A stretch of DNA of 64,000 bases from an uncultured Syntrophaceae bacterium (GTDB lineage Bacteria > Desulfobacterota > Syntrophia > Syntrophales > UBA2185). Positions within the stretch are counted from its first letter, which is position 1. Each line of letters opens with the position of its first letter. The notes under the pieces are model-generated. The model saw only the letters and a list, made by a program, of their open reading frames with translations, was not told where the DNA came from and made no database searches. The translations under genes were made by a program, and so were the position numbers. Shown here in pieces: positions 15,187 to 37,095 of this stretch. Location: assembly GCA_964564625.1 (NCBI GenBank), contig CAZMBE010000001.1, forward strand, positions 33,143 through 97,142, in the 5' to 3' direction.

Positions 15187-15214
15187 AATCAGTCAACTTT
15201 CTTTTTTCAAAAGT

Positions 15215-16114: not shown

Positions 16115-16142
16115 ATAGCAGTCATCCTGAAAAAAACGTCCG

Positions 16143-17129: not shown

Positions 17130-17173
17130 ACGGGAGTCGGGAATTTTAAACTACTTATAGAATTCCACTTTCA

Positions 17174-18199
17174 CTATAAAACAATACTGCCCATTTCCAA
17201 AGATTCCTTTACCAAGTCGAGTTTCAACAGCAAATCAATCAGGCCATTCTCATCCAATTGCTGTGCATTGTGAGAATGGTAATCCTCATGGTCTGAAACT
17301 CCCGTTTCACCCTCAGTAAAATAGCAAGCGTAGTTGAGATCGCGGATGTCTGCAGGTATCCGGTAATAATCGCCCATATCTTCCGCACGGGACATTTCTT
17401 CCCGTGTCAGCAGCGTTTCATAAAGTTTTTCGCCATGACGTGTGCCAATGATGCGGATATCGTTGTCAGCGTTGAACAGTTTCTTCAACGTGCGGGCCAG
17501 TGTTTCAATGGTCGCTGCAGGCGCCTTCTGAACAAAAACATCACCCGGATGTCCGTTCTCAAATGCATACACAACAAGATTTACCGCGTCATTAATGGAC
17601 ATCATGAACCGGGTCATGTTCGGATCTGTAATTGTCAGTGGCTTCCCCGTCATAATCTGGCTGATAAAAAGAGGAATAACGGATCCCCTGGAGCCCATGA
17701 CGTTGCCATAGCGGGTGCCGCAAAAGATGGTCCCTGAATCACCGTGGGTCCGCGCTTTGGCGATCATCAGCTTCTCCATTAGCGCCTTAGACATCCCCAT
17801 GGCATTGATGGGATATACAGCCTTATCAGTGCTGAGCGTGATCATGTTCTTGATGTTGCAAGCTAATGCCGCTTTCATTGCGTTATCCGCGCCGATGGCG
17901 TTCGTCCGGATGGCCTCCAGGGGGAAGAATTCGCAGGACGGCACCTGCTTGAGTGCTGCTGCATGAAATACCATGTCCGCGCCCTGCATGGCAGGAAGAA
18001 GACTATCATAATCCCGGACATTCCCCAAATAAAACTTCACTTTCGGATTCCTCAGGGCATTGCGCATATCGTCCTGTTTTTTCTCGTCGCGCGAAAAAAT
18101 ACGGATTTCTTTGATATCAGTATCCAGAAAGCGGTTCAATACAGCATTTCCAAAGGTGCCCGTACCGCCAGTGATTAGCAGGACTCTGTCTTTAAACAT
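17174..18199 (-). CDS. UDP-GlcNAc 4,6-dehydratase/5-(3-)epimerase, FnlA/CapE/WbvB type
   Basis: The N-terminus is MFKDRVLLITGGTGTFGNAV...IRIFSRDEKKQ. The atypical MxxxK (MGMSK) replaces YxxxK, as in the CapE/FnlA subgroup. Confidence 0.85.
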   Translation of the reverse strand: MFKDRVLLITGGTGTFGNAVLNRFLDTDIKEIRIFSRDEKKQDDMRNALRNPKVKFYLGNVRDYDSLLPAMQGADMVFHAAALKQVPSCEFFPLEAIRTNAIGADNAMKAALACNIKNMITLSTDKAVYPINAMGMSKALMEKLMIAKARTHGDSGTIFCGTRYGNVMGSRGSVIPLFISQIMTGKPLTITDPNMTRFMMSINDAVNLVVYAFENGHPGDVFVQKAPAATIETLARTLKKLFNADNDIRIIGTRHGEKLYETLLTREEMSRAEDMGDYYRIPADIRDLNYACYFTEGETGVSDHEDYHSHNAQQLDENGLIDLLLKLDLVKESLEMGSIVL

Positions 18200-18564: not shown

Positions 18565-19347
18565 TTAAGATGTGCGGTAATTCTCATCAATGAGTGCGTC
18601 TTTTTCTCTTCTGTTTGGATAATTTATAAGTACGGCCCTGTAAATGCCTTTGAATACAAATAAGCTACCGGCGGCAGCACCAATAATCCCATACTGACTA
18701 ATTAATTGTCCAATATCCTTAAGCGACCCAGCGCCACCAAGTACAGTCATCGGAATGGTTATCTTTTTTCGGATTTTCTCAACTATCGAAAGATCATAAC
18801 CTTCCATAATACCGTCATTATCTATGGAATTAACTATTACCTCACCAACACCGAACTTTTCCAGTTGTATCGCAAACTTTATTGGACATTTTCCTGTTTT
18901 CTTTTTCCCATTATGTGTCCAGACCTCATAATTTCCATCTATTATTTTTTTCTTAATATCAATAACCACACATACACTCTGACTGCCAATTTGTTCTGCT
19001 ATTTCTGAAACCAGATTAGGGCTTTCTACCGCAGCAGAACTTATTGCCACTTTCTCAACGCCCAACCCAATTATTCTTTGTGCCTGTCTAACAGTCTTTA
19101 CACCACCACCGTAGCAGAGGGGCATTCGACATTCAGCAGCTAAATTTTCAATCATTCTAAAGTCCGGTTCTACGTTATGAGAAGTAGCATCAATGTCAAG
19201 GACCATCAATTCGTCAACTTCCTTTTCATTAAAGATCCGCACTGCATTAATAGGATCACCAATATATTTTGGTGCTCTAAAATTGACAGTCTTTATTAGT
19301 CCCTTGTTATGAACTAACAAACAAGGTATTATCCGTGGACGTAGCAT
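18565..19347 (-). CDS. HisF-like imidazole-glycerol-phosphate-synthase cyclase subunit paralog (WbuZ type)
   Basis: TIM-barrel HisF signature (RIIPCLLV..., DELMVLDI, GGG). It sits in a polysaccharide cluster beside HisH-like and WbuX-like genes, not in a his operon. Confidence 0.85.
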   Translation of the reverse strand: MLRPRIIPCLLVHNKGLIKTVNFRAPKYIGDPINAVRIFNEKEVDELMVLDIDATSHNVEPDFRMIENLAAECRMPLCYGGGVKTVRQAQRIIGLGVEKVAISSAAVESPNLVSEIAEQIGSQSVCVVIDIKKKIIDGNYEVWTHNGKKKTGKCPIKFAIQLEKFGVGEVIVNSIDNDGIMEGYDLSIVEKIRKKITIPMTVLGGAGSLKDIGQLISQYGIIGAAAGSLFVFKGIYRAVLINYPNRREKDALIDENYRTS

Positions 19348-19350
19348 TGA

Positions 19351-19965
19351 TTAAAGGTCGGCAAAGTTTTTAAGAAGTTGAACGCCACATTGATGACTTT
19401 TCTCTGGGTGAAACTGGACGCCAAAAATATTTCCTGAGCACACAGCGGATGCGAAATGACTGCCATAATGCGTTATTGCGAGCACATCTTCTTTTTTATT
19501 GCAGTGAAAATAATATGAGTGCAAAAAATAAAAGCGGGAGTCAAGATTAAATCCTCGGAATAAACTAGTTTTTGTAACAGGTTGCACATCGTTCCAACCC
19601 ATGTGAGGAAGATGTGTGCTGTGAGTCAATCTTGAATGGTCAATTTTTTTAACTACCCCGTCAATCCACCCAAGACCTGGTAAAGCTCCTTCTTCACTGG
19701 AACGGGCAAGTATTTGCATACCTACACATATACCAATTACTGGCACATTATCCTTTAATACAAGCTCGTCAAGTGTCTGCCGCATACCAGATTTCTCAAG
19801 TTGCTCCATTGCATTGTCAAAAGCCCCGACCCCAGGCAGAATGACTTTTGTGGCTGTTTTCAAATCATCGCTTTGTGTAGCAATATTGATGGGGATATTT
19901 AATTGATTATAGACATTTACAAATGCCCTAATATTTCCTAACCCGTAATTAACTATTGTTATCAT
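19351..19965 (-). CDS. HisH-like glutamine amidotransferase subunit paralog (WbuY type)
   Basis: Class-I GATase with the nucleophile elbow GICVGMQ and the C-terminal motif FHPEKS. It overlaps the upstream gene (ATGA at 19962). Confidence 0.85.
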   Translation of the reverse strand: MITIVNYGLGNIRAFVNVYNQLNIPINIATQSDDLKTATKVILPGVGAFDNAMEQLEKSGMRQTLDELVLKDNVPVIGICVGMQILARSSEEGALPGLGWIDGVVKKIDHSRLTHSTHLPHMGWNDVQPVTKTSLFRGFNLDSRFYFLHSYYFHCNKKEDVLAITHYGSHFASAVCSGNIFGVQFHPEKSHQCGVQLLKNFADL

Positions 19966-21104
19966 CTGATAACTCTTTTTTCTATTCCTAATAATTGCAT
20001 TACTTTTGTTCCCAAGGTTATTAAAGCCATGTTGTTTTTGTAATCACGGTAAGTCTTGTTCTCTCCTTCAAATAGTTCCTGAAACTCAGATACAGTTAAA
20101 TCTAATTTTTTTGCAACATACTCGAAGTCTTGCAACATTGTTTGCTCGTCTATTTCTGGTTTTGCTATTCGCTCAAGAGCCTCTTGACGGGTCATCTGGT
20201 TGGTTAAAATTAAACTTGAGAGGTGAGCTTTTCGCCTTTCATAGCCGAATTTTTTGGGAAGCCAAAAACACTCGACAAATCTTGTAAACCGAGATTCATG
20301 ATGCTTTTGGGCATAGCTCTGCCAACCAAAGCGATCAGTCAATTCCTGTATAGCAATTTTTTTTATATAAGGTACATAATTTAATGGTCTTACAACCCGA
20401 ATACCTTTTATGTAACCATAATATAACTTATATTTGAAAATATCCGCAGTTGGAAATGTTTTCAAAGGACGCTTTCCAAAGCGACGATGAATATCTCTCA
20501 CAAAACGCATGTCTGTTGGATAATAAGCCCCCCACTCATTTGGCTCACGAACACATTCCGTTGAATAGTTTGCCCCTGTTAAAATATATTTGAAGTTATT
20601 TTTTACGGCGAAGTTATAAAGAGATGAAAAAAAAGATAAATCCTGGGGAATATCAATATTAGCTAGTTGTGCTTTAAAGAATGCTAATTGCAAATCCTTC
20701 ATCTCTGACCAATCTATAACATCCGTATAAAGATCAAGCCCGAGTCCATCTACCAACCTTTGAATATTATTTGCAGATACCTGTGAATTCCAACCAGCAT
20801 CGACATGGAACAGAAGGGGCTTCAATCCTAATTTTTCCTTTGCTATATAAGCAACGTACGAACTATCGACGCCACCGCTAATGCCAATCAAACAATCGTG
20901 ATCGCGTCCTTGCCCATCTTTCTTAATCTTTTCAGTTACTTTTGCTAATTCCTTCTCTCCCTGATCATTTGGATGCCAGTTTGGCTTGATATTTTCATAG
21001 AAATTGCGGCAATAATCGCACCAACCTCTCTGATCAAAAGTGATATCGGGATCAGTGGTGTCCATTATACAGTTAGAACATATTTGAAATTTTTCAGTAC
21101 TCAT
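19962..21104 (-). CDS. N-acetyl-sugar amidotransferase (PP-loop ATPase; WbuX/LfnA/PseA family)
   Basis: An N-terminal Cys-rich zinc ribbon (CSNC...CDYC) is followed by the PP-loop GISGGVDSSY. The triad with HisH and HisF paralogs is the known acetamidino-sugar module. Confidence 0.8.
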   Translation of the reverse strand: MSTEKFQICSNCIMDTTDPDITFDQRGWCDYCRNFYENIKPNWHPNDQGEKELAKVTEKIKKDGQGRDHDCLIGISGGVDSSYVAYIAKEKLGLKPLLFHVDAGWNSQVSANNIQRLVDGLGLDLYTDVIDWSEMKDLQLAFFKAQLANIDIPQDLSFFSSLYNFAVKNNFKYILTGANYSTECVREPNEWGAYYPTDMRFVRDIHRRFGKRPLKTFPTADIFKYKLYYGYIKGIRVVRPLNYVPYIKKIAIQELTDRFGWQSYAQKHHESRFTRFVECFWLPKKFGYERRKAHLSSLILTNQMTRQEALERIAKPEIDEQTMLQDFEYVAKKLDLTVSEFQELFEGENKTYRDYKNNMALITLGTKVMQLLGIEKRVIR

Positions 21105-24739: not shown

Positions 24740-26023
24740 TCACGTTCTAAGCAATCTCGACATCAGAAGAGCACTAACAATAAAATAAACCATTGTACAA
24801 TTGCTCAAAGAATCTCCATATGAATAGAAAAAGATGCCATAATACGGAATGCTAAAAATAAATGTATATATAAGTATTGCAGGCAAACCCCAGAAACGGT
24901 TCTTGTTACGCAAAAACGTTAGTAAAACAAGAAAGTATATAACACATATAATTAGTGTACCCCACAATCCATAATCGATACTGAGTTCTTTGAGAAGCGT
25001 ATTAAAAGTACCTGGTTGCAATCCATATTCGAAATGAAATGATAATACTTCACTCGATATCGTTTGATGCCAATAATTGGGTAGAATACCAACAATCATT
25101 AAGATCCAGCAGAACAGAGGAGATGTAAATTGACCAAGAAATATTTTGTGATCAAGCCAGTTATTCGTATAATATTCTGAGAAGTTGCCGTACATTTGAC
25201 CCAAGTATTCAACGATTGATAAAAAAGGATCAACAACATCACCAAAGCTATAATCTCCAATTGATAATGATAGAAATCTCTCTCCCGTAATAAGTGAGAA
25301 AATAGATATCTGTAGAACAAGAACTATAAATAACAAACAATTGATTACCTTTAAAGGTGATAGATAGCCGGATAGTGATTTTGCGCTATCCTTTAAGTAA
25401 GGCCGAAATAATATAAAATTAAATAAAAACAACATAATCCATTGAACAAGCCCAGAACGGCCTACATGGGCTATCCCATATACTACACCAAACAGCGAAC
25501 ACAATAAAAACATCAGCGGGTAAAATAATTTTTCTCGGTATGCGGCAGTATAGAAAAACATCGTGAGTGAGATCGGCCATGAGGCGCCAATCAATGCAAA
25601 TATCAGGTCCGTCTTTCCACGATCTTTGTATAAGCCTAAGTTCACAAGGAATCTATTATACTCGATATCTCCCATAATGGTATCTACTGCATCAGGCAAA
25701 TAAAATAAAATTGAAGCTAATTGTATAATGAAATATACAATACAGAACGTCCTGATGAGAGGGGTTAATTCTATAATTCTTAGTTTTATAGAGGCTTCAT
25801 TAAAATAAACGTGTGGTAATATAAGCAACGATAAACACACATGATAGTAAAAGGCTGCAAAAATATTGATGTCGTATTCTAAAAGGTTCGAAATTATTAA
25901 AAAACATAAACCGCTTAGCGCGTAAGTTCCCAAAAGAAGGTTAGAAACGGTCATAATATTCTTTTTATGAACGCTATTTAGAATGAATAAAATTGAAAAA
26001 TATATGAACGGAAGTGCTTTCAT
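24740..26023 (-). CDS. Polytopic membrane protein, O-antigen polymerase (Wzy) candidate
   Basis: 427 aa with at least 10 hydrophobic helices and very AT-rich coding sequence. It is the only unassigned polytopic protein in a cluster that also has wzx and wzz. No diagnostic motif was recognised. Confidence 0.55.
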   Translation of the reverse strand: MKALPFIYFSILFILNSVHKKNIMTVSNLLLGTYALSGLCFLIISNLLEYDINIFAAFYYHVCLSLLILPHVYFNEASIKLRIIELTPLIRTFCIVYFIIQLASILFYLPDAVDTIMGDIEYNRFLVNLGLYKDRGKTDLIFALIGASWPISLTMFFYTAAYREKLFYPLMFLLCSLFGVVYGIAHVGRSGLVQWIMLFLFNFILFRPYLKDSAKSLSGYLSPLKVINCLLFIVLVLQISIFSLITGERFLSLSIGDYSFGDVVDPFLSIVEYLGQMYGNFSEYYTNNWLDHKIFLGQFTSPLFCWILMIVGILPNYWHQTISSEVLSFHFEYGLQPGTFNTLLKELSIDYGLWGTLIICVIYFLVLLTFLRNKNRFWGLPAILIYTFIFSIPYYGIFFYSYGDSLSNCTMVYFIVSALLMSRLLRT

Positions 26024-26082: not shown

Positions 26083-27501
26083 TTATGTATTTGCCGAGAT
26101 GGCCTTTATGATATAATTTGTATATGCATCAACATTTTCTTTGTCTTGCGGGGTGCAAAGAACTCCTTCAGAGTTGAAAACAGGCACAATATGCCCAGGA
26201 AAGCTCCCTGAAAGCCAGGTGCGCCAATAATTCAAATCCAACGTGTATTCTTTCTGCTGAAGTTTTTCAAAAAGATCCACTAATGAAAGCTGCGAGCTGA
26301 TGTCGCCTGCAAAAAGCATCTTCAAGCCCGGTGGGCGGCCCAACGCAATCGAAGGTTTTCCCAACACGGCGGCTTCATTAGAGGCTGTTCCGGCAAGCGT
26401 TACGGTAACCCTGGCGGCCAAGACAAGATTTGTAGAATCAACATCTGGTGATACAAGAACAATGTTTGGAATAGCCTTGAGCCTCCGGTAATAGTCAATG
26501 GGCCGCATGCCCTTCATTTTGGGGTTTTCCTTTACCAGAAGTTGCCATCCTGCCGGTAATGCCTGACTGACTATCCGACACATTTCAATTTGATCACGCA
26601 ACCAAGGGCTATACATCAAGATAGTAGCTTCCGGCTCCATATGCAAAGGTATGTAACATGAAGATGCTTTCAACGTTTTTAATGCATCGGTTGTTAGAAT
26701 ATCATATTTCGGTTCTGGATGTTTAAACCACCTTTGTGGCAACCTGTTTTTAATTGTTTGCAATGAAATGATTTTTGAAACTGGAAAATAACTGCCTGCC
26801 TTACGGTCCTGCTTATCACACGATAGTTCGTGATAGCGGCTACCCAGCCGCGTCCACAAAGGAGGAATGGCTTGTGGTTTCATGTATTCAATGCGTTTTT
26901 CAGCAGGAGTGTGAAGAAGCCGCCGGCATTCTTCAAGAAGCGCTTCCGCATTTCCTTCAAGGGGTACACTCCATGTTTCCCACGGTGTTTTGAGCGCAAT
27001 CACCCTGCCGGGTGGTAAACCGCAACCTACAAAAGAAAAATGAGCGCCGCCTCGGCTGTTTGCGAGCGCCCCAGCAAGCCAGTAAAAGAAATGATCATAC
27101 ATGGAACTGATAGACAACGTTCCTTCAGAAACGAGATGGTCAAGAACGACAAGATGTTTTCGTCCAAAAAGAACCGCATCCAAGCCATCTTCCGGCAAGA
27201 ATCTTTCGCTTTGAAGCATTAAATTAAAATTTGCACCTTGTTTCTCATATAGGAGGCGATCTATTTCAGAAAATCTTTCACCAGTAATTTCATACCCGCT
27301 AACTTTACCCAACTCTTCCGGCATGTAAATACATTCATAACCAGCCTGTTCGGCCCTCTCTATTGCCCACGAGAAAAACGTTACAAATCTAACGGGAATG
27401 TCACCAAGTTTTTCCTTAAGACTTTTTGCCAATTCAACATGAAAAAGGACTTGCCAGGGGCGGGTAAGGAACAAAATTTGCCTTACGGATTGGCTAGTCA
27501 C
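26083..27501 (-). CDS. Uncharacterised soluble transferase-like protein (possible GT-B / capsule-biosynthesis-like fold); NulO-transferase candidate
   Basis: The GTG at 27501 overlaps the stop of the wzx 3' fragment (GTGA), giving about 472 aa. The tracked start at 27555 lies inside wzx. The C-terminal half (YIPLHMEPE...VKENPKM...TLAGTASNEAAVLGKP) resembles nucleotide-sugar-binding halves of GT-B or capsule-synthesis enzymes. I cannot place it in a named family. Confidence 0.4.
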   Translation of the reverse strand: MTSQSVRQILFLTRPWQVLFHVELAKSLKEKLGDIPVRFVTFFSWAIERAEQAGYECIYMPEELGKVSGYEITGERFSEIDRLLYEKQGANFNLMLQSERFLPEDGLDAVLFGRKHLVVLDHLVSEGTLSISSMYDHFFYWLAGALANSRGGAHFSFVGCGLPPGRVIALKTPWETWSVPLEGNAEALLEECRRLLHTPAEKRIEYMKPQAIPPLWTRLGSRYHELSCDKQDRKAGSYFPVSKIISLQTIKNRLPQRWFKHPEPKYDILTTDALKTLKASSCYIPLHMEPEATILMYSPWLRDQIEMCRIVSQALPAGWQLLVKENPKMKGMRPIDYYRRLKAIPNIVLVSPDVDSTNLVLAARVTVTLAGTASNEAAVLGKPSIALGRPPGLKMLFAGDISSQLSLVDLFEKLQQKEYTLDLNYWRTWLSGSFPGHIVPVFNSEGVLCTPQDKENVDAYTNYIIKAISANT

Positions 27502-28783
27502 GTTTTTATATCCAGTGTTGTCAAATAATAAGAATAGGCCAAGGCAAATACACACAGAAATGCGCTCGCAATAAATCTAGCCCATGCAACTCCTTCAATT
27601 CCGAAACCTTTTTGAACAAGAATCAAACCTAATATCCATAACACAAGAATCGCAACAGCATATCCGATCATGAGCGGAATATTTCTTCTTACAACTGGGA
27701 TGATTACGCTGACACCAAAATAGACCAGGAATATACTGCCCAATGAGTAAATTTTTGCTGCCTCAATTCCATCTCTATAGTTGGGTAAAAAATTTTCAGT
27801 CATTGGGCCAATCAGAAAATAGCTTATGAGACATAATGGGACTACGGTAAGTATGTTAATAATTAAGCTGAAAAAAAAAACCCTTTTAAACCTAACGATG
27901 TCTTCGATGAACCGTAAATATATGATGCCCTCGGATAGAGCAGCGCTCCCATACTCACAGGCAGGATCTGAATGGCTGTAACAATCAGACCTGATAATGC
28001 CAATTGCCCAACAGCCTCCGGCCCCAACATAAAGGCTACAATGGTCCTGTCTGCTGCTGTAAAAAAAATATACAACACACCCGTTGCAAGCATGGGAAAA
28101 CCAACACGAGTTAAATCTGATATCTCGTCAATCCTTCCCATTGATCTATGCTTAACGGGGCTTTTGCGATACAACAAAAGAAAGTTAACCATAGGAAGCA
28201 CTGCGCTTCGAAAGATCAAACCGAAAGCGCCGAATACGATGGGAAGAAAACCAAGAACAAAATTTACTCCGTTAGCGATGTTAAGAAAGATCCCCAGAGA
28301 CATAAAGGCGCGGCAACCTCGGTATATTGTTTCGTAATGAGTACATATTGGTGAGAATATTAAAATTCCAAAAAGGATAGCAACAGAATATAAATATAAA
28401 TTTGCATAGCCATACATAAAGAAATAGATTAACGCGATGGAGGATATCACTATCCCAATAAGTGAGTTAATAATGGCGGTTAACCAACTCGCATCAACCA
28501 TGTCCTGTATCTTGACCTTGTTTTGTTGAGCATCATAAAAAGCTATATTTCGATTCAGACCATTAAACACGCCAAAATGAAAGAATGAGCAATAGACAGA
28601 TATAAGCATCACAGTTTGAATGACTCCCAATTCATAAGGGAGAAGGTATTTGGCTGCGATGATGCTTGTCAGAAAGCCGACCAGTGGTGTGCTGATCTGC
28701 GAAGCCAGGTAAACCAGATCGCCGTATCTCTGCCGGTTTAAAACATATAGATAGAAATATTTTTTTGCCGTACTAATACACAA
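27498..28783 (-). pseudogene. wzx: O-unit flippase Wzx (MOP superfamily), interrupted by a frameshift in a homopolymer
   Basis: Two consecutive polytopic ORFs (306 aa and 101 aa) lie in different frames. Adding one T to the T10 run (coding strand) gives the continuous hydrophobic read-through ...GFFFFSLIINILTVVPLCLISYFLIGPMTENF... The total is about 430 aa, the usual Wzx size. Confidence 0.7.
27871..27880. repeat. A10:T10 homopolymeric tract at the wzx frameshift site
   Basis: Read directly: ...aagctg aaaaaaaaaa cccttt... Confidence 0.95.
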
Positions 28784-28951
28784 GGAAGGTGTGCCTCTGT
28801 TGATTTGCTGTTCCTAATATTGATAATATAGTCACAACGAAATGTGTGAAAGCTTACATGGAGGGGAAAAGTATGACCAACCCTTCCGCTAACATAGCTG
28901 CACCTAAAGAGCTGCCTGTACTGGTTACCAGCACGGGTTTCCCTTGCCGAT

Positions 28952-30040
28952 TCATGACTTCAGATTCTCTCTCTGATTTATATCATTTTGAGCCTTTTCA
29001 TAGTCTACATGTTGGCCAATATCCACCCAGTATTCAATAATAGGGAAACTTATCACATTACGCCCCGCATCTAAAAGGCACTGGATTAAATCTGTCATGT
29101 TGAAATGCTCACCGTTAGGAATAAACTTGTAAACTGCTGGCTCTAATAGATAGATTCCTGCGTTGACAAGAAAACTTTTTTGCGGTTTTTCATTTAAAGC
29201 ACATACACGCGGCCCATCGCATTCTACCACGCCATAGGGTACTTGCATACTATATTGTCTGACTGCTACAGTCATGTCTGCAAGATGGTCCTGGTGGTAG
29301 GACAGCATGCCTCTGAAATCAACCTGCGTTATAATATCGCCATTGATCACCAATACGGGTTCGGTAGGCTTGGACATAAGCCCCAGTGCGCCGGCCGTGC
29401 CGAGCGGCCGATCTTCGTTGACATAACACAACTCAACCCCAAAATCTTTCCCGTCTCCAAAATGCTCGGTTATCTTTTCAGATTTATAGAGCGTGGTTAC
29501 ATGAACGCGTGTAATTCCGGCTTGCCGCAATTGCTCAATCGTCCTTTCCATCAGCGGTTTACCGCCTACCGGAAGCATCGGTTTCGGCAGATCATCAGTA
29601 AGAGGGCGCAGGCGATTACCGAGACCGCCTGCCATAATAACCGCCGACATTGAAGCAGGCTCTTCAGATATGAGGTCTCCTCGAAGCAATAGTGCGACAA
29701 CTTTTTTTTCATCATCCACAAGCGGGAGATGGTTGATCTTGAAAGGACGAGTTTGATTCATGATATGCAAAGCTTCTTCACGCGAAATATTGTGACCTGC
29801 AATGACTGGATTCATGTTTGCTATGGTAATGCATGGATCTGTGAAGGGAATATTGCGGATTATCGCACGGCGGATATCACCATCTGTGATAATTCCAACT
29901 ACTTTTCTATCCTTCTTGCATAAAATTAACGCACCAACACCAGAACGGTCAAGTATGGGAATGACGTTGGATATGGATAAAGTTGACGATATGATTGCTT
30001 TTTCTAATCGATTCCTCGCCGCTTCTATTGATATTGCCAT
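28952..30040 (-). CDS. CBS-pair + sugar-phosphate nucleotidyltransferase (PtmE-like)
   Basis: N-terminal CBS motifs (VVGIITDGDIRR; HLPLVDD) are followed by the NTP-transferase motif VIMAGGLGNRLRPLT. It sits in a NulO module. Confidence 0.75.
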   Translation of the reverse strand: MAISIEAARNRLEKAIISSTLSISNVIPILDRSGVGALILCKKDRKVVGIITDGDIRRAIIRNIPFTDPCITIANMNPVIAGHNISREEALHIMNQTRPFKINHLPLVDDEKKVVALLLRGDLISEEPASMSAVIMAGGLGNRLRPLTDDLPKPMLPVGGKPLMERTIEQLRQAGITRVHVTTLYKSEKITEHFGDGKDFGVELCYVNEDRPLGTAGALGLMSKPTEPVLVINGDIITQVDFRGMLSYHQDHLADMTVAVRQYSMQVPYGVVECDGPRVCALNEKPQKSFLVNAGIYLLEPAVYKFIPNGEHFNMTDLIQCLLDAGRNVISFPIIEYWVDIGQHVDYEKAQNDINQRENLKS

Positions 30041-30093
30041 TATGGTGACTGCCTATAATTTTGTATATTGAGAAGATTGCATAAACTTTAAGA

Positions 30094-30741
30094 TCACTTC
30101 ATTTGCTTTGCGGGAACGCCCACAACCGTTACACCCGGTGGCACATTTTTTGTGACAACCGCACCTGCACCGACAGTGGCGCCATGGCCTATTGTTACAT
30201 ACTGCAATATTGTGGCGCCAGTACCAATTAAACATTGATCGCCAATCCGGACACCCCCGGATATATTTAACCCCGGATTAAAAACGCAGAAGTCACCAAT
30301 AACTATATCGTGGCTGTACGTTGAGTTACGATTGAATTGATTAAAAGAGCCGATTTGTATGTCCGTCGTAAAAATGTTACCCGCACAGACAATATTCCCT
30401 TTCCCAAATAAAACACGCTCTTCATCCATGATGGTCTTAGGATGAAAGAGGTTTGGAAACACGACATTATTATTAAAACAGAACCTGCTGCAGATGTTAA
30501 CCATCGTTTTAGGATTTCCTATGCCTAATGCCAAGGCTATTGTGTCAGCAAATGATAATATGTAATGCTCAGAGCCAACGATTTTGTACTTTCCATTAAA
30601 GGCCCCCTCATGATCTTCACTTCGATCAATATATCCCAATATGTTCCATTGCGGTGAGATAGAAGCTCTGTTTATCTCTTCGATTAAAAAAGCCACTTCC
30701 TTGGCATGCCCACCCGCACCAATGATAAAAATATCATTCAT
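30094..30741 (-). CDS. Left-handed beta-helix N-acetyltransferase, NeuD/PglD/LegH family
   Basis: The N-terminal motif is [12 protein letters not shown]-terminal hexapeptide repeats are present ([31 protein letters not shown]). Confidence 0.8.
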
Positions 30742-30744
30742 CTT

Positions 30745-31797
30745 TTAAACCAAATCATCCCATTCTATTTCTTCATCTGCCTGAACCTCGCGGTTTAGGG
30801 CTCGACCTATCACATAAAAATATTCATCCGGATGGATGCCCATTCCCGGCCTTTTAAAATCAATATCTTCTAATTTTAATTTGTGCCCTTTTGGAAAAGC
30901 CTTTGTTGTAACTAAACGTCGTCTGAATTTCCCCCTTTTTTCTATTTCAGCTGCATATAAATTACGAACAAAACCGCCTAAAGACAAAAATACCCTGCGA
31001 CCCTCTGTGGCAATAATGCTTAGTTCAGTAGGATCCGCTGAAATGGCATGATCCCAACCTTCCATATTTTTATCAAGAGTGAAATGTTTCTCAATTATGC
31101 AAGCACCTAAAGCAATAGCTGCTAATGGAATAGAAGTGCCAAGAGAATGATCGCTGAAGCCGACAGGCACATTAAAAATCTTTTGTAGTGAAATTATGTT
31201 GCGTAAATTGATTTCTTCATACGAAGGAGGATAAACGGCAATGCAATGTAGAAGTACAATATTTTGTGTTCCATTCTTTTTCAATATATCAGTAGCTTTT
31301 TCAATTTCTCCTAATGTGGCCATGCCTGTTGAAAGGATAACAGGTCTTTTTTTCTTGGCAACATATTCAAGAAGTAATAAATGGTTAATATCCATAGATG
31401 CAATTTTATACGCGGCCACCTTCAATTCATCCAACAAATCAACTTCTTGTCGAGTGAAGCAGCTTGAAAGAAATGTGATACCTCGCTTCCTACAATAATC
31501 TGCTACCTCGAAATGCTGTTCCCGTGTTAACTGATATTTTTCCACCATTTCTTCAAGAGAGCCGAAATGCTTCTTCTTATCGTCATAAGATGTGTTACGT
31601 TTATACTCAGCGGCTGATATAATGGATGTTTTTGACCATGACTGAAATTTCACCGCATCGGCTCCGGAGATTAATGCAGCATCTATTAAACGTTTGCATA
31701 AATCCATATCACCATTGTGGTTGGATCCAATTTCTGCGATAATGTATGGTGGTTCACCTGCACCGATTCTTCGTCCGGCAAGATTCAGCGTCTCCAT
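30745..31797 (-). CDS. Nonulosonic acid synthase, NeuB family (LegI/NeuB/PseI type) with a C-terminal SAF domain
   Basis: The ATG at 31797 is preceded by the SD ggagg. The motif PYIIAEIGSNHNGD is present. The C-terminus has a SAF-like domain. The tracked GTG at 31833 is less likely. Confidence 0.85.
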   Translation of the reverse strand: METLNLAGRRIGAGEPPYIIAEIGSNHNGDMDLCKRLIDAALISGADAVKFQSWSKTSIISAAEYKRNTSYDDKKKHFGSLEEMVEKYQLTREQHFEVADYCRKRGITFLSSCFTRQEVDLLDELKVAAYKIASMDINHLLLLEYVAKKKRPVILSTGMATLGEIEKATDILKKNGTQNIVLLHCIAVYPPSYEEINLRNIISLQKIFNVPVGFSDHSLGTSIPLAAIALGACIIEKHFTLDKNMEGWDHAISADPTELSIIATEGRRVFLSLGGFVRNLYAAEIEKRGKFRRRLVTTKAFPKGHKLKLEDIDFKRPGMGIHPDEYFYVIGRALNREVQADEEIEWDDLV

Positions 31798-32693
31798 AAT
31801 GCCTCCAGTTTGGGATGGGCAACGATATCCCACCAGATATGTGGTTCCATTATTTCATTTAAAGCCTGTAAATACTTACATAAAGTTTCTTTCGAGTTTT
31901 TGATGGAATAAAAAAATTCACTAACAATCATTCTGTTTTCATCAACCTTTAATAAATGTTGTGACTTGAGATCGTTAATATATGGTAGCAGTAAATTAAA
32001 ATGTTGGAAAACCATCTTTGTTGCATTTAATATATACTCTTCGGTGAATGGAGGTAGAATACGGGCTACATTAGCGGTATACTGGCGATAGTGCATTCGA
32101 CATTCAGGATCAAAATACATTTTGGCATCTTTTGACCACGCATTTATAGCTAAAAACCAATCAACAATCACGCACTGATCTGGTATTGGTAAACAGCGCT
32201 TCAGTATTTCTGATCGATAGGCTGTATTGGATAAACCAAAAACATTATGTTTCGGTAATATATCACATGTCTTCATATTAGCGGGTATCCCAAATAAACT
32301 GTCTAAATTGTTTCCATACTCATCAACAAGATTCATGGCACACCCGTAGACGTCATACGCTACCAAAGCATCCCTCGCGGCCTCCACCCTCGAAGGATAT
32401 AGAATATCATCGCTATCAACAAAAATAATACCGTCATAATTATTAATCATTTCCAAAATAATACGTTGGCGAATTTGTGCAGGCGTTTCTCTCCGTTTAG
32501 AAAATCTCATCGTAGCATATGGTGTGGCACCAATAGCATCGATAATGTGTTCAATATCCAGGCTATCGATACCTATCCAAAGATCAAAATTCCGATCTTT
32601 TTGTTTTAATACTGAGTCATACCAAGATGTAAGAAATTTTTCTACACCAGGATAAATAGTTGTATACAAAGCTAATCGTGCAGTTGATCTCAT
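31785..32693 (-). CDS. Uncharacterised GT-A-like (GT2-like) protein with a DSDD motif
   Basis: The N-terminus LALYTTIYPGVEKFL...DLWIGIDSLD and the segment IIFVDSDDILYP resemble the nucleotide-binding and DxD region of GT-A enzymes. The C-terminal ~130 aa is unassigned. It sits between the CMP-synthetase and NulO-synthase genes. Confidence 0.4.
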   Translation of the reverse strand: MRSTARLALYTTIYPGVEKFLTSWYDSVLKQKDRNFDLWIGIDSLDIEHIIDAIGATPYATMRFSKRRETPAQIRQRIILEMINNYDGIIFVDSDDILYPSRVEAARDALVAYDVYGCAMNLVDEYGNNLDSLFGIPANMKTCDILPKHNVFGLSNTAYRSEILKRCLPIPDQCVIVDWFLAINAWSKDAKMYFDPECRMHYRQYTANVARILPPFTEEYILNATKMVFQHFNLLLPYINDLKSQHLLKVDENRMIVSEFFYSIKNSKETLCKYLQALNEIMEPHIWWDIVAHPKLEALWRR

Positions 32694-33403
32694 ATCAAAT
32701 GCATACCCTTTAGCATAAGAATTTCAGCCAGTTTCCAATCATCCTCTGTATCAATATCAATAGCCCGATACCAAGGCATTTCCCACCCTGTATGATTAGT
32801 CGTGTAAAACGTCTTTTCCTGTCTTAGCACGTCTGCTTTGACCCACCAGATAGCACCAGTGGGGCAAAAAATCTCCGGCAAATCCTGGCTGCGCTTGGTC
32901 GTCTGCTCTTGGAAAATAGGGGTAAGCTTGTTATGATTATCCATTGCCATAGCCCACCATGGATTTTGCCATCCATATCTGGCAATGGAAATTTGTGACT
33001 CAGTATCTGTCTCAAGGAACTTACAGTAACTGTTTAATATGTCCTTTACAGATCTCAAAGGACAGTTTGCCATAAACTGCGCTATATATTCATATTGACC
33101 TCCATCGGGATCAACCCGTTCCAAGGCATCCAGTGTCACTAAGGAAACCGGTGTGTAATCGTCAGCAATCGATTCCAAGCGTATGAATGGCACCTGGGCT
33201 CCATATCTGCAAGCTATTTTCGCTATCGCCTGATCATCCGTTGAAACTAATACACTTTCAAAAACACCGCTTTCAATAGCTGCCTCTATGGTATATGCAA
33301 TGATCGGTTTTCCCAAAAAGTCACGAATATTTTTGTATGGAATCCTCTTAGATCTACCACGTGCAGGTATGACAGCCAAATTTTTATGCTTTTTAAGATT
33401 CAT
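32690..33403 (-). CDS. Acylneuraminate-type cytidylyltransferase (CMP-NulO synthetase, NeuA/LegF family)
   Basis: The N-terminus is AVIPARGRSKRIPYKNI. The protein is 237 aa. Confidence 0.8.
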   Translation of the reverse strand: MNLKKHKNLAVIPARGRSKRIPYKNIRDFLGKPIIAYTIEAAIESGVFESVLVSTDDQAIAKIACRYGAQVPFIRLESIADDYTPVSLVTLDALERVDPDGGQYEYIAQFMANCPLRSVKDILNSYCKFLETDTESQISIARYGWQNPWWAMAMDNHNKLTPIFQEQTTKRSQDLPEIFCPTGAIWWVKADVLRQEKTFYTTNHTGWEMPWYRAIDIDTEDDWKLAEILMLKGMHLI

Positions 33404-33486
33404 GTATCTTATTTTTCGGTCTTTCAGCTGCGCTAAAAGACCTTGTAAAACCTTTGCATAATGTTGGTTTAAATTTTCCCCTTATT

Positions 33487-34780
33487 GTCGGGGCCATTTT
33501 CCCGCGTCGTTGTTATTTTTTAGGTTTTATTGCTCTTTGACAACCTTGATTTCTCCCCGGATACCCCCGGAAAGGGGGCTCAGGGGATGCTCCCCCTATG
33601 TTGCAGCAATCATCTCCCGTTTTCTGAGATTCAGGACAACACGTTTAATGTTGAAGGCCATGGCTCCACAGAGATGATCCCAGTTCTCCTTGACGATGGT
33701 TGTGAACCGCGCCTTCCCGGCTCCATGATATGTATGCGTGATCCCAAAGTACTGCTCAATCTTATACCTGATCTTTGAGATTCTCTTGTTCCTCTGGATT
33801 TCAGCCTCCGTCAGAGAGGCATTGATCTGATTCTTCCTCATGATGCCGTCACGTATCCCGTTCATGTGTAAAAAGTCCCGGTTCGGTTCACCACAGTATC
33901 CCTTGTCGGCATACACCACAGGCGGCAGCGCTTTCCCGTGAATGCCTTTCGTTACGGTATAAGAAAAATACTTTGTATCATGCTCCGATGCCCTCGACAT
34001 ACAGGTGGACAATACAAGGCCACTCCCCACATCGATGGACACATGCTCCTTCATCCCGAAGACGGGTTTGTTGTGTTTCACCGTCCAGTCCGAATCAATG
34101 TCCCGCTGGAACCGCATGGCCTTCTGAGTCTTCTTTCTCATCTGCGCCCTGATCTTCCGCTTCTCTCGGAGTTCTCTGAGCTTCCTGTCACTGATGGGGC
34201 GGCTGGCCGATCTCACGACACGGGCATCCGCGGCCATGCCGGATTCAATGGAAAACCCCAGAGCATCACACTGATTCAGGAGCTCGTGATGAACCTTCTC
34301 CAGGGTCTCTTTCCTCGTGCGCTCACGAAAACGGCAGATGATTGAATGGTCCGGGGATGGCTCGCTGAAGGGTAATCCGATGAAGGCCTTGAAGGAGAAA
34401 CGATCATTGATCTGCCTCTCCAGATCAGGATCAGACTTTATCCCAAACCATTTCTGCATGAGGATCGCTTTCAGCAACATCAAGGGAGGATATGCCTTAT
34501 TCCCAAAGTCAGACTGCCCCACAGGATAGTTTTCCTGGACAATCTTCTCGATGGGATCCCAGTTAATGATGGCATCGATTTCTGAGAGGACTTGCCGGTT
34601 GCTGGAGTGGGTGACGGCTCGTTGTATTTCCATATCCAGGAATGTCGGTTTTGTATCGTATTCCTTGAATGCCATGGCGGTCTCCTTCAGCAAGAATGTT
34701 ACCGGAAGGCTACCATAAAATAATGTTATTGTCAAGTAATATCAATATGTTAAATGAATTTTAATCTAAATTCCCCCGAC
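33487..34780 (-). mobile_element. IS5-family insertion sequence (boundaries approximate)
   Basis: It contains the transposase gene. Its base composition differs from the flanks. The right limit is constrained by the end of the NeuC/LegG-like stub homology (about 34781). The only candidate terminal inverted repeat is gtcggggNNattt at 33487 and 34780, which is too short to be statistically convincing. No target-site duplication was seen. Confidence 0.6.
33596..34675 (-). CDS. IS5-family DDE transposase (InsH-like N-terminal domain + DDE_Tnp_1)
   Basis: The ATG at 34675 is preceded by the SD gaaggag. The translation reads MAFKEYDTKPTFLDM...PPLMLLKAILMQKWFGIKSDPDLERQINDRFSFKAFIG...ADKGY... with a ...YHGAGKARF... 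C-terminus typical of the IS5 group. Confidence 0.85.
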   Translation of the reverse strand: MAFKEYDTKPTFLDMEIQRAVTHSSNRQVLSEIDAIINWDPIEKIVQENYPVGQSDFGNKAYPPLMLLKAILMQKWFGIKSDPDLERQINDRFSFKAFIGLPFSEPSPDHSIICRFRERTRKETLEKVHHELLNQCDALGFSIESGMAADARVVRSASRPISDRKLRELREKRKIRAQMRKKTQKAMRFQRDIDSDWTVKHNKPVFGMKEHVSIDVGSGLVLSTCMSRASEHDTKYFSYTVTKGIHGKALPPVVYADKGYCGEPNRDFLHMNGIRDGIMRKNQINASLTEAEIQRNKRISKIRYKIEQYFGITHTYHGAGKARFTTIVKENWDHLCGAMAFNIKRVVLNLRKREMIAAT

Positions 34781-34914
34781 TCTGCCAGCGGGACTTGTGC
34801 AAAGATTTCAATCTGGCCCTTCAGATCGGAATTATTCAGAATATCCTTTATAACCCACTAGAGGCGGCCGTATTCGGCGCGTGTTCCTGGAACAAAACAG
34901 ATTTTTTCAGACAT
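34781..34914 (-). pseudogene. 5' stub of a NeuC/LegG-type hydrolysing UDP/GDP-HexNAc 2-epimerase gene, with an in-frame TAG, truncated at the IS
   Basis: Hand translation gives MSEKICFVPGTRAEYGRL*WVIKDILNNSDLKGQIEIFAQVPLAE. The KIxFVxGTRAEYG opening is the hallmark N-terminus of NeuC/LegG enzymes. The start overlaps the legC stop (ATGTCTGA). The TAG is at 34860-34858. The remaining ~330 codons are absent. Confidence 0.7.
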
Positions 34915-36088
34915 TCTCGTCTACCAGAAACGAGCTACTGGGTATATTTATGAGTCGTTTTGCTAGGTTTTCAGCACAGCCAAGCTCCATTGCCGGGCAT
35001 TTTTTGAACATGGATAATGTATGCATCAGCGTCCAGGCAGGGCGCACCATGATCCCGCTGTCGTTAGTTTTTTCAAGAATTAAGTCGCGCTTATCGCAAA
35101 GGTTCGTGTCCAGAAGAATCGTATTGAGCCAGTAATTACTCTTGGCAAAGGGGGGCTCTTTAAAGAATGTAATGCCTTTTATCTTCTGAAAAGCATTTTG
35201 ATAGCATTCTGCAAGACGCCTTTTTTGTTCCAGAAATTTTGGGAGCTGCTCCATCTGGGCGCACCCCAAGGCGGCATTGATGTTGGGAAGTCGATAGTTA
35301 TATCCGACATGATCGTGTCTATATTCCCACCGGTGGGGAATTTTTGCAGTTGATGTCAAATGCTTGGCCAGTTTGCCCAGTGCCTCATCATTGGTGATTA
35401 TCGCCCCCCCCCCTCCCGTCGTGATCGTTTTGTTTCCGTTAAAACTCAGACTGGACAATTTTCCCTGGTTTCCCGTGTGTCTTCCCTTATAGTATGAACC
35501 AAGGGATTCCGCGGCGTCTTCAATCACTTCGATTTTATATATCTTGCAGGTCTCAATGAGGGGATCGAGATCGACGGGATGCCCGAAGGTGTGCACCGGG
35601 ATGACTGCTTTGATCCTCCTTCCGGTAAATATGTTGGTGCAGCCGTTCGAATTTATCCGGGCGATGTTTTTGAGATGATCCTGAAGTTTAATAGGGTCGA
35701 GTCCCAGGGTTCTTTCTTCACTGTCCACAAAATGAGGAACGGCACCGCAATAGGTGACGGCGTTGGTAGTCGCTACAAAAGTTAACGCCGGAACCAGAAC
35801 CTCATCCCCGGTTTTAACCCCGGACAATATCAGGGCGATATGGAGGGCTGCAGTACCGTTAACCATGGCCACCGCTTTTTTAGAGCCCGTGAAGTCCGCA
35901 AGCATAGCCTCGAATTTATCCACATATTGCCCGATGTAGGAAACATAGGTAGAATCAAGACAATCCTTGAGATAAATCCATTCATTCCCGCACAAACACG
36001 GCTCATGCAGAGCGACGTGGCCTTTTTTGTCAGAAATGGCGCTTTTAATGGCGGTTATGATGGCGTTGATATCCAGTTGTGCTGTCAT
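34907..36088 (-). CDS. legC: PLP-dependent sugar aminotransferase, DegT/DnrJ/EryC1 family (LegC type)
   Basis: The PLP-lysine context is SFNGNKTITTGGGGAI. The protein is 393 aa and overlaps the upstream dehydratase gene (ATGA at 36085). Confidence 0.8.
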   Translation of the reverse strand: MTAQLDINAIITAIKSAISDKKGHVALHEPCLCGNEWIYLKDCLDSTYVSYIGQYVDKFEAMLADFTGSKKAVAMVNGTAALHIALILSGVKTGDEVLVPALTFVATTNAVTYCGAVPHFVDSEERTLGLDPIKLQDHLKNIARINSNGCTNIFTGRRIKAVIPVHTFGHPVDLDPLIETCKIYKIEVIEDAAESLGSYYKGRHTGNQGKLSSLSFNGNKTITTGGGGAIITNDEALGKLAKHLTSTAKIPHRWEYRHDHVGYNYRLPNINAALGCAQMEQLPKFLEQKRRLAECYQNAFQKIKGITFFKEPPFAKSNYWLNTILLDTNLCDKRDLILEKTNDSGIMVRPAWTLMHTLSMFKKCPAMELGCAENLAKRLINIPSSSFLVDENV

Positions 36089-37095
36089 ATATTATATTCA
36101 CCCCACTTGTATTGCCGTAAGCAATCGGGATTTGTAAACCATGTTACGGTTTCCTGCAACCCTCTTTTTAATCCTTCGACGCCGTCGTAGGCAGGTGACC
36201 ATCCCGTCAATTCTTTTACTTTCCTGTTGTCTGCCCAGAGTCGTTCCACTTCGCTATTCTCGGGTCTGACTCTTTGTAAATCACTTTCAATTGCTATATT
36301 TTCCTTCATGATCTCGGCAATGATTCTTACTGTTTCTCCGATTGATATTTCAAAATTGCTTCCGATATTTATTACTTCCCCTATGACCTGATCTGATGCT
36401 GCAACGGCAAGGAAACCATTCACCGTATCTTTCACAAAATTAAAATCCCTTGTCGGATGCAATGAGCCTAATTTTATTTTTCTGACACTGTTGGCAATCT
36501 GTATAATGACACTGGGGATAACCGCTCGAGCCGATTGTCTAGGCCCGTAGGTATTAAAAGGACGAACAATACTTACTGGCATATTGAAAGCATGGTAAAA
36601 AGACATTGCAATCTGATCCGCCCCAATTTTGCTCGCAGAATAGGGAGATTGTCCCTTTAATGGATGCTCTTCTGTAATTGGCACAAATCTGGCCGTCCCA
36701 TATACTTCACTTGTGGATGTGTGAATGACCTTGGATATTCCGAGTTCTCGTGCAGCCTGTACAATATTAAGAGTTCCTTTTACATTTGTATCGATGTAGG
36801 TATCCGGCGAATGATATGAGTAAGGGATAGAAATCAAAGCAGCAAGGTGGAAAACTACATCACACCCTTTCATGGCATGCCTGACACCATGGGGATCACG
36901 CACATCCCCTGCAATAATTTCAATACTCTTTTTAATATCCGGATCCGAATGATCAAGCCATCCCCAGGAATTAAATGAATTATACATAACAAACGCACGA
37001 ACATTGTACCCGCGTTTGACCGATTCCTCCGTCAAATGAGATCCTATAAATCCATCGGCACCAGTGATAAAAATCTTTTTATTTTTCAGGTTCAT
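36085..37095 (-). CDS. legB: NAD-dependent HexNAc 4,6-dehydratase (LegB type)
   Basis: Rossmann motif IFITGADGFIGSHL, the segment ...MYNSFNSWGWLD, and YxxxK motif (YSASK). It is the first biosynthetic gene after wzz. Confidence 0.75.
   Translation of the reverse strand: MNLKNKKIFITGADGFIGSHLTEESVKRGYNVRAFVMYNSFNSWGWLDHSDPDIKKSIEIIAGDVRDPHGVRHAMKGCDVVFHLAALISIPYSYHSPDTYIDTNVKGTLNIVQAARELGISKVIHTSTSEVYGTARFVPITEEHPLKGQSPYSASKIGADQIAMSFYHAFNMPVSIVRPFNTYGPRQSARAVIPSVIIQIANSVRKIKLGSLHPTRDFNFVKDTVNGFLAVAASDQVIGEVINIGSNFEISIGETVRIIAEIMKENIAIESDLQRVRPENSEVERLWADNRKVKELTGWSPAYDGVEGLKRGLQETVTWFTNPDCLRQYKWGEYNI

Follow-up and report, generated by a model that had tools for sequence, protein, structure and literature searches.

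Genes at the locus

The stretch of DNA analysed here (the window) comprises 64,000 nucleotides of contig CAZMBE010000001.1 (assembly GCA_964564625.1; positions 33,143 to 97,142 of the forward strand) from an uncultured Syntrophaceae bacterium, whose 3.05-Mb metagenome-assembled genome (MAG) consists of 78 contigs and is 92.8% complete. We examined a gene of its minus strand (26083..27501, the target), the product of which we consider likely to be a cytidine monophosphate (CMP)-nonulosonic acid transferase, acting here on a legionaminic-acid-type sugar and probably retaining. The original prediction had named the gene a candidate nonulosonic acid (NulO) transferase from its context, and this gained support from a KpsC/KpsS-style fold, from KpsS1-like homology and from linkage to NeuB.

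The target open reading frame (ORF) of 472 amino acids (aa) is uninterrupted and starts with GTG at 27501. The open frame extends further (26083..27555; 490 aa counted from the first GTG), and the start at 27501 is favoured because homologues are mostly 469-476 aa long and the alignment begins at residue 1-2. The GTG (27501-27499) lies over the TGA (27500-27498) of the upstream ORF 27498..27803 in a GTGA overlap; DNA and translation agree with the ORF, and with the overlap of its GTG with the wzx stop, as first described, and the C-terminal strings quoted at that time (YIPLHMEPE and LVKENPKM) are found in the translation. The coupling to wzx claimed along with them holds in part: the overlap is real, but the upstream partner is the 3' fragment of a frameshifted wzx. 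The target lies within a long minus-strand Wzx/Wzy polysaccharide cluster that includes the following genes.

37232-38083, minus strand: Wzz-like gene (cluster survey).
36085-37095, minus strand: legB (TIGR04180, 535 bits against a cut-off of 475).
34907-36088, minus strand: legC (TIGR04181, 535 bits against a cut-off of 420).
33596..34735, minus strand: IS5-like transposase within the NulO module (DUF772 and DDE_Tnp_1; a single copy in the assembly).
32690..33403, minus strand: CMP-nonulosonic acid synthetase (PF02348; TIGR03584, 216 bits against a cut-off of 205.7).
31785-32693, minus strand: 302-aa ORF with the CMP synthetase on one side and NeuB on the other (unmatched in Pfam and NCBIfam).
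30745..31833, minus strand: NeuB-family nonulosonic acid synthase, LegI-like (PF03102, 290 bits).
30094..30741, minus strand: NeuD/PglD-type N-acetyltransferase, LegH-like (family matches).
28952..30040, minus strand: CBS plus sugar-1-phosphate nucleotidyltransferase, PtmE-like, feeding the guanosine diphosphate (GDP)-linked legionaminic acid route (family matches).
27498..28783, minus strand: wzx flippase in two frames (Pfam Polysacc_synt; tblastn of the L009 orthologue).
26083..27501, minus strand: the target gene, predicted CMP-nonulosonic acid transferase (ORF, model, structural matches, hhalign).
24740..26023, minus strand: 427-aa polytopic membrane protein, probable Wzy (no Pfam match).

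Given the LegB/LegC/PtmE-like set, the NulO module of the window is, on its gene content, of the legionaminic acid (GDP-linked) type. The probable Wzy is homologous (330 bits) to a neighbour of the target homologue in Desulfonema magnum, and a comparable gene follows the target homologue in most loci; the equivalent position in Acinetobacter baumannii is occupied by an EpsG-type Wzy. Beyond the probable Wzy are two genes of glycosyltransferase (GT) family 4, an epimerase and a WbuXYZ-like amidotransfer set, then an FnlA/WbvB-type pathway to a 6-deoxy-L-N-acetylhexosamine, a third GT4, a Bac_transf initiating transferase and a PglF-like dehydratase. The further sugars that the locus would provide are of L-FucNAc/QuiNAc type. 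Among the transferases of the locus, the target alone is neither GT4 nor Bac_transf.

Two further features of this region were seen. The WbuX/WbuY/WbuZ-like trio (18565-21104) lies beside an FnlA/WbvB-type dehydratase, an RmlD-like reductase and a 2-epimerase (14059-18199), all on the minus strand, and this gene content points to an acetamidino 6-deoxy-L-hexosamine as a further sugar of the repeat unit. Upstream of the cluster, a Wzy_C/O-antigen-ligase-family gene (39138-40472, plus strand) adjoins a small MarR/winged helix-turn-helix regulator (38480-38842).

Homologue family and conserved residues

The target had been described as an orphan, which it is not: 97 clusters (at 90% identity) matched it at E<=1e-3 in a word-indexed search, mostly over full length and down to 31% identity full length, with nearly all of them named "hypothetical protein". 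Full-length homologues were found in Desulfobacterota, Verrucomicrobiota, Bacteroidota, Planctomycetota and WOR-3. Searches of Pfam, NCBIfam and the Protein Data Bank (PDB) with the single target sequence were uninformative (E 0.02-1). No Pfam or NCBIfam model matched above its cut-off; the best Pfam match was PF05159 Capsule_synth (11.7 bits, E 0.18, residues 313-390; gathering cut-off 20 bits), LpxB-type models gave E ~0.02-0.03, and the PDB search returned KpsC (6mgd) at E ~1 only.

An alignment of 71 of the 97 family clusters (A1) contained 22 invariant positions. Those of the N-terminal half include E99, R100, H116, D136, H137 and Y140; those of the C-terminal half include H287, P290, E291, Q304, K324, R333, G371 and E376. 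The codons of the motifs discussed below are as follows.

27202..27207, minus strand: E99-R100 of the E-R-F-L motif; invariant, and aligned to D-R-F-L of the KpsS1-type protein.
27091..27096, minus strand: D136-H137, located in the N-terminal domain in the loop that follows strand 128-132; invariant (71/71), candidate general base by a role assigned from the comparisons below.
26629..26643, minus strand: H287-M-E289-P290-E291, the H-x-x-P-E of the superfamily; H287, P290 and E291 invariant (71/71), E289 in 70/71.
26521..26532, minus strand: K324-E-N326-P327, where KpsC has its CMP-binding "HP" motif; K324 invariant, position 326 N in 65/71 and H in 6/71.

Searched with a profile, 1.84 billion representatives yielded 9,424 proteins at E<=1e-3. 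About 35 of these align full length at better than E-100, and a sister set follows at E-60 to E-84; the remaining superfamily consists of thousands of ~500-aa proteins that match mostly over residues 270-440. The consensus of the superfamily as a whole is P-L-H-x-E-P-E ... V-K-E-H-P-x-M ... R ... G-T-A-G-x-E-A. PF05159 scored above threshold in the sampled ~500-aa superfamily proteins, and its threshold was also passed by six closer family members and by sister groups. In a FastTree phylogeny of the C-domain, which carries no support values and was used only for the nesting of the family, the target family is a derived clade within the HxxPE radiation and the KpsS1-type protein lies near the base. 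As judged from these searches, the family forms a derived branch of a larger superfamily. One superfamily member (P0177, 724 aa) carries a HAD-type phosphatase domain (PF13419) as a C-terminal fusion, which may be compared with the sugar-phosphate phosphatases of the 3-deoxy-D-manno-octulosonate (Kdo), neuraminic acid (Neu) and ketodeoxynononic acid (Kdn) pathways.

Predicted fold of the target protein

The AlphaFold2 model computed on A1 (mean pLDDT 92.9, pTM 0.91) is a GT-B protein with two Rossmann-like domains. In an all-against-all structural search (VIA) its best match was KpsC (6mgd; Z 13.6, root-mean-square deviation [rmsd] 4.0 Å over 248 residues), together with WbbB of GT99 (Z 13.2), KrkA of GT140 (Z 12.8) and KpsC-N (Z 12.3); this group of CMP-Kdo transferases gave rmsd values of 4.0-5.0 Å. 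Thus four of the five top matches were retaining CMP-Kdo transferases, and only these fell at rmsd ~4-5 Å; SpnG (rank 4) and generic GT-B folds were at ~8-12 Å, with Z ~12 or less for the generic folds. With its closest similarity to KpsC, WbbB and KrkA, the model falls within the GT-B fold group of retaining ulosonic-acid transferases (GT99/GT107/GT118/GT140).

Foldseek against the PDB returned generic GT-B matches only, at the low TM-scores of ~0.2-0.3 that follow from the orientation of the domains. In the ESM Atlas, a 480-aa PF05159 cluster matched the fold at TM 0.79 over 436 residues, and feature similarity to PF05159 clusters was 0.98-0.99, with two of the three best named "LipB/KpsS family". 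These comparisons of the model with GT-B transferases, which the original prediction had called for, place the target with KpsC/KpsS-style CMP-ulosonic-acid transferases, and no non-transferase family was matched; the resemblance first noticed in the C-terminal half, to GT-B or KpsS/KpsC-style enzymes, was confirmed by both fold and profile searches.

Relationship to KpsS1, KpsC and WbbB

With the family profile from A1, KpsC was reached among PDB sequences at E 1e-7, and with a C-domain profile from 50 diverse superfamily members (A2) KpsC was reached at E 2e-14 and WbbB at E 5e-7. Retaining Kdo transferases have a carboxylate-binding Gln, a nucleophilic Asp and a CMP-binding HP motif (PMC12887879); when the target is aligned with KpsC 6mgd, the Gln and the Asp of QxxxD are matched by H287 and E291, respectively, and HP by N326-P327. 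The N326-P327 region was also aligned to H-H-P of KpsS and to K-x-H-P of Escherichia coli KpsC. E. coli KpsS compared with the family profile aligned over 83 columns with an hhalign probability of 34%. Membership of GT107 (KpsC/KpsS) was rejected, as only 77-145 C-terminal residues align to KpsC and only those 83 columns to E. coli KpsS; at the motif positions of GT107, the target has H287...E291 and N326-P327 and not a literal QxxxD plus HP.

A protein of the KpsS1 type was reached through a tblastn search of a plasmid collection, in which two A. baumannii records were matched, both of them chromosomes mislabelled as plasmids. These records, NZ_CP077849.1 (L050) and NZ_CP104448.1 (3.66 and 4.09 Mb), carry the capsule K locus and have a nearly empty gene table. 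The K locus of NZ_CP077849.1 has the order pseudaminic acid (Pse) module (psaA-F), wzx, a 480-aa PF05159 protein (P0243, 53.5 bits) and EpsG-type wzy; its PseB, PseC, PseF, PseG and PseI each match an NCBIfam equivalog above cut-off. P0243 has Y131-E132 and shares 29% identity with E. coli KpsS across 98 residues. For KpsS1, Glu132 in a YE motif is given as the proposed general base, along with 30% identity to KpsS (PMC12887879). From the locus content, the Glu132 numbering and the KpsS identity, and not by accession, we infer that P0243 is a KpsS1-type (GT118) protein, and it is so treated here.

Target and P0243 compared directly by BLASTP were 32% identical over 105 aa (E 2e-18), and hhalign of A1 against P0243 gave a probability of 99.1% (E 1e-18, 178 columns). 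When P0243 was joined by 21 near-full-length relatives, in a family of ~480-500 aa, the hhalign probability was 100% (E 3e-50) over 422 columns, covering residues 8-469 against 2-472; since the A1 profile had served to find these relatives in the first place, the C-domain part of this E-value is partly circular, while the N-domain result and those with P0243 only are not. The N-terminal halves alone gave a probability of 88% (E 3e-6; reversed control, E 0.46). Significant similarity to a KpsS1-like protein over the catalytic module was found, with P0243 as the reference. H287, P290 and E291 were aligned to H299, P302 and E303 of P0243, and K324-E-N326 to K-D-H; common to the target and the KpsS1-type protein are H-x-x-P-E, K-(D/E)-(H/N), G..E-A and the N-domain (D/E)-R-F-L. 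The Y131-E132 of P0243 aligns, within a region of low identity, to S132-S133 of the target, with the invariant D136-H137 three residues downstream.

Linkage to nonulosonic acid synthesis genes

Fourteen loci of GTDB species genomes encode full-length family members. They are from Desulfobacterales, D. magnum, Pirellulales, Bacteroidetes, six Verrucomicrobiota (four of them Opitutales/Opitutaceae), one unclassified uncultured bacterium, Polaribacter, WOR-3 and an alphaproteobacterium; NeuB and the synthetase were sought with hidden Markov models made from the loci's own genes. NeuB was present in the flank (within 10 kb) of the target homologue at 13 of the 14 loci, the exception being a 3.8-kb contig. 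At the metagenome and genome places found, the CMP synthetase was present in 6/6 and NeuB lay beside the homologue in 5/6. For the more distant C-domain relatives, NeuB or the synthetase was nearby in 13/20. In the genome of the window itself, the family is represented once, a strong NeuB occurs once and Maf domains are absent. Co-occurrence with NulO synthesis genes, the check proposed with the original prediction, was seen at essentially all loci with a sufficiently long flank.

Some distant C-domain relatives with P-L-H-x-E-P-E were also seen without NeuB or CMP synthetase in the flank, in Helicobacter pullorum NCTC 12824 (L028), L031 and L032 (for L028 and L032 the flank was 10 kb to either side, for L031 ~4-10 kb), and superfamily members need not all be NulO-linked.

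The kind of module beside the family varies. LegB/LegC/PtmE-type modules are neighbours in the window, in D. magnum, in the Bacteroidetes locus and in WOR-3; modules with a PseG-like protein, an aldo-keto reductase (AKR) and a short-chain dehydrogenase/reductase (SDR) are neighbours in Verrucomicrobiota and in the uncultured Desulfobacterales L009, the protein of which is 69% identical to the target. The presence of N-P or H-P at the CMP motif, compared with a Leg- or Pse-type module alongside, gave no correlation. Comparing L009:1-11428 with window positions 26083-37095, this closest genome orthologue lies beside a PseG-like fusion, an aldo-keto reductase and an SDR and not beside LegB/LegC/PtmE, which may be either a swap of the NulO module next to a conserved transferase or a transferase tolerating both donors.

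Proposed function and mechanism

From the fold, the full-length KpsS1-like homology, the motif conservation and the NeuB linkage, each of which was directly obtained, we infer the donor, the acceptor, the stereochemistry and the roles of residues, and hence which sugar is transferred. A soluble or peripheral GT-B enzyme would take the CMP-activated nonulosonic acid made by the adjacent module (LegB/LegC/NeuB plus CMP synthetase) and would transfer it, at the cytoplasmic face, onto the growing undecaprenyl-diphosphate-linked repeat unit, which Wzx would then flip and Wzy polymerise. The C-terminal Rossmann domain may bind CMP via K324-E-N326-P327, R333 and G371...E376. By the KpsC alignment, E291 would occupy the position of the nucleophilic Asp and H287 that of the carboxylate-binding Gln; E291 would attack C2 to form a covalent glycosyl-E291 intermediate, in a retaining double displacement by analogy with KpsC, WbbB, KrkA and KpsS1, and D136 or H137 of the N-domain would activate the acceptor hydroxyl. 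A CMP-beta-Leg donor would then yield beta-linked legionaminic acid (net retention).

Several observations weigh against assigning the target as a legionaminic-acid-type transferase of this kind. The target does not reach the gathering threshold (20 bits) of PF05159. The canonical QxxxD and HP are literally absent, with HxxxE and NP in their place, and the changes from Asp to Glu, Gln to His and His to Asn leave room for a different mechanism. Pairwise similarity to the KpsS1-type and KpsC proteins is limited to ~105-180 C-terminal residues, and the proposed base of KpsS1, Glu132, is aligned to the non-acidic S133. CMP-Kdo is present in any Gram-negative cell, so that gene context alone would also fit a Kdo donor. 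Orthologues 41-69% identical to the target adjoin Pse-type and not Leg-type modules, so that donor specificity is not readable from the family. It has further been argued that sugars with an equatorial C5 substituent fit the Kdo-transferase scaffold poorly and that such an enzyme would be hard to evolve (PMC12887879). Finally, with legG truncated and wzx frameshifted as described below, the target may be without a donor or an export route in this strain.

The same Pse-type neighbours may mean that the clade tolerates both Leg- and Pse-type donors. We suggest, tentatively, that the clade may be a natural retaining beta-legionaminyltransferase in which a Kdo-transferase-like double-displacement scaffold acts upon a sialic-acid-configured sugar whose C5 substituent is equatorial; the Q to H, D to E and H to N changes in the catalytic and CMP motifs would then belong to the adaptation.

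Alternative readings of the target and its locus

Two genes of the cluster are damaged in this assembly. The wzx coding region is split into frames of 306 aa (27863-28783) and 101 aa (27498-27803), with the frame switch at a G3T10 run (T10 at 27871-27880), and tblastn with the intact 422-aa Wzx orthologue of L009 (~62% identical) is split likewise, frame -1 and then -3. Wzx of D. magnum gave no tblastn match against the window, and at a looser threshold matched with 21% identity (E 0.001), a divergence too great to reveal the frame. A hydrolysing 2-epimerase of the legG/neuC type survives only as a 42-residue N-terminal remnant (34780-34905, minus strand) with an in-frame TAG, recognised by TIGR03568 (24 bits, model positions 2-43), by tblastn with LegG of L003 and by translation of the frame; legC and the IS5-like ORF flank it directly, and the remainder of the gene is missing. 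As assembled, the CMP-Leg pathway looks broken. Remnant and frameshift together suggest a recently damaged or phase-variable locus, or artefacts of the MAG consensus; the frame change at T10 could reflect an error of sequencing or consensus, recent pseudogene formation or slipped-strand switching.

These lesions leave some room, although we think it the less likely case, for the target being the intact passenger of a decaying locus in a genome where the polysaccharide is no longer made, and thus having no current role. Such decay accords with the reduction of legG to ~40 codons and a TAG beside the IS5-like element, and with the frameshift of wzx at T10. Against this, the target ORF has itself remained intact and keeps all 22 family-invariant residues; in a 78-contig MAG, phase variation or an error of consensus or sequencing may account for the homopolymer frameshift, and a hydrolysing epimerase may reside in the ~7% of the genome that is unassembled.

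A beta-Kdo (or other octulosonic acid) transferase that uses housekeeping CMP-Kdo and not the product of the neighbouring NulO genes seems quite improbable to us. CMP-Kdo requires no dedicated genes in the locus, and CMP-Kdo transferases supplied the closest structures as well as every sequence match in the PDB; yet NeuB and CMP-NulO synthetase genes are linked to the family at 13/14 loci, often directly adjacent or overlapping, the homology extends over full length for the KpsS1-like family (E 3e-50) but over only 77-140 residues for KpsC/KpsS, and the motif is the HxxPE of the KpsS1-type protein and not QxxxD.

Still less probable is that the nonulosonic acid transferase is encoded elsewhere in the locus, e.g., by the 302-aa GT2-like ORF (31785-32693), and that the target adds a different sugar or a non-sugar substituent. 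This ORF is located inside the NulO module and separates the CMP synthetase from NeuB, PF00535 Glycos_transf_2 is present in its D. magnum homologue, and the locus holds several further sugar pathways. Homologues of the ORF were, however, present in only three distinct family loci (window, D. magnum and WOR-3), whereas the target family tracks NeuB everywhere, and GT2 enzymes use nucleoside diphosphate (NDP)-sugars, whereas the relatives of the target all use CMP-ulosonic acids (PMC12887879).

As an observation on the 302-aa ORF itself, its homologues were confined to the Leg-type loci of D. magnum (with the PF00535 GT2 domain) and of a WOR-3 MAG, and neither of these loci has a recognisable LegG in its module. 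The ORF may encode an additional transferase or an enzyme that processes NDP-sugars; the thought that it replaces LegG was weakened by the legG remnant found in the window.

That the target is not a transferase and itself replaces the missing hydrolysing 2-epimerase (LegG/NeuC, of GT-B-like fold) is hardly credible: there is no intact LegG in the window and UDP-GlcNAc 2-epimerases were among the top Foldseek E-values, but the epimerases lie at rmsd ~8-11 Å (VIA) or 16-20 Å (Foldseek, TM ~0.2) against 4 Å for KpsC, the remnant means that the locus once had its own LegG, and the family co-occurs with bona fide LegG (L003/L012) or PseG-like genes (L005, L008, L014-L019).

Significance

Information on native legionaminic acid transferases "is very limited in general" (PMC11356810, 2024), and NulO transferases of the PF05159 type were predicted in 2015. 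The transferase assignment proposes a function for "hypothetical proteins" that fall below the Pfam threshold in sulfate reducers, Verrucomicrobiota, Bacteroidota and other environmental phyla, and it links these proteins over full length to KpsS1 (GT118), the one relative that is biochemically characterised. One NulO transferase of the PF05159 type was reportedly proven in 2024. The present analysis also yields a residue-level hypothesis (H287/E291, N326 and D136/H137), and the prediction is testable since the cultured D. magnum 4be13 (NZ_CP061800.1, L010) has an intact syntenic locus. The target is of practical value as a candidate legionaminyltransferase which, if both donors are tolerated, would be a tool for the chemoenzymatic synthesis of bacterial nonulosonic acid glycans.

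Comparison with known transferases

The classical NulO-transferases (GT38, GT42, GT52, GT80, Maf and the Tannerella forsythia TagB-like proteins) use a CMP-nonulosonic acid donor, as predicted for the target, and GT38, GT52 and GT80 are also GT-B proteins with an HP motif. The statement that no classical sialyl- or NulO-transferase family could be recognised proved correct. There was no sequence match of the target to GT38, GT52 or GT80 sialyltransferases (Pfam, NCBIfam, PDB and profile searches), and none to the other classical families, including GT42 and the T. forsythia TagB-like proteins; Maf (MptE-like/MAF_flag10, PF01973) was found neither in the target nor in its own genome, at 92.8% completeness. 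The GT38 polysialyltransferase 5wc6 resembled the model only as a generic GT-B protein (Z 10.7, rmsd 10.9 Å). As a candidate for the D/E-D/E-G motif of GT38/GT52/GT80, E104-D105-G106 of the target was rejected, for it is not conserved (position 104 is variable) and HP is mostly NP.

The WbbB (GT99) and KrkA (GT140) modules, which are retaining Kdo transferases, share the fold class of the target; they differ in being only 8-14% identical, in using a Kdo donor and in being domains of larger multidomain enzymes. For KrkA, trapping of a covalent glycosyl-enzyme has been achieved with the D193C variant. KpsC (GT107) is the dual retaining beta-Kdo transferase of group 2 capsules, which transfers from CMP-Kdo onto lipid-linked Kdo in an ABC-transporter system and not a Wzx/Wzy system. 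It is the best structural match, has a homologous C-terminal CMP-binding region (profile E 1e-7 to 2e-14) and has its motifs at equivalent positions; in contrast to KpsC, the target has H-x-x-x-E for Q-x-x-x-D and N-P for H-P, and its N-domain shows no detectable sequence similarity.

Nearer in context are Gtr59 and KpsS1/2, which are PF05159 proteins adjoining NulO modules (PMC4487303). The A. baumannii KL12/KL63 protein Gtr59 (AIT56356, AHB32584), like relatives of it in E. coli O108, Photobacterium profundum and Bacteroides fragilis, is a predicted acinetaminic/legionaminic acid transferase with PF05159, and the beta-(2->6) linkage of legionaminic acid in A. baumannii K63 has been ascribed to Gtr59(K63) (PMC4487303). 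Gtr59, itself a prediction and likened here by its description only, is like the target in being of PF05159 type and in adjoining a NulO module, and its beta linkage needs a retaining enzyme, as predicted for the target.

KpsS1 of A. baumannii is, according to PMC12887879, a retaining Pse5Ac7Ac transferase of GT118 related to KpsC and WbbB. Compared via P0243, the target differs from it by an overall identity of ~18%, by scoring below the PF05159 cut-off where P0243 reaches 53.5 bits, and by a neighbouring module of Leg type where that of KpsS1 is Pse. The two are alike in length (472 and 480 aa), in the GT-B fold, in the position NulO module - wzx - gene - wzy, and in profile homology over full length (E 3e-50). 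On these sequence comparisons, the target is best described as a divergent member, not annotated before, of the nonulosonic acid transferases of KpsS1/Gtr59 type (PF05159-related, GT118-like), and not as a new enzyme class.

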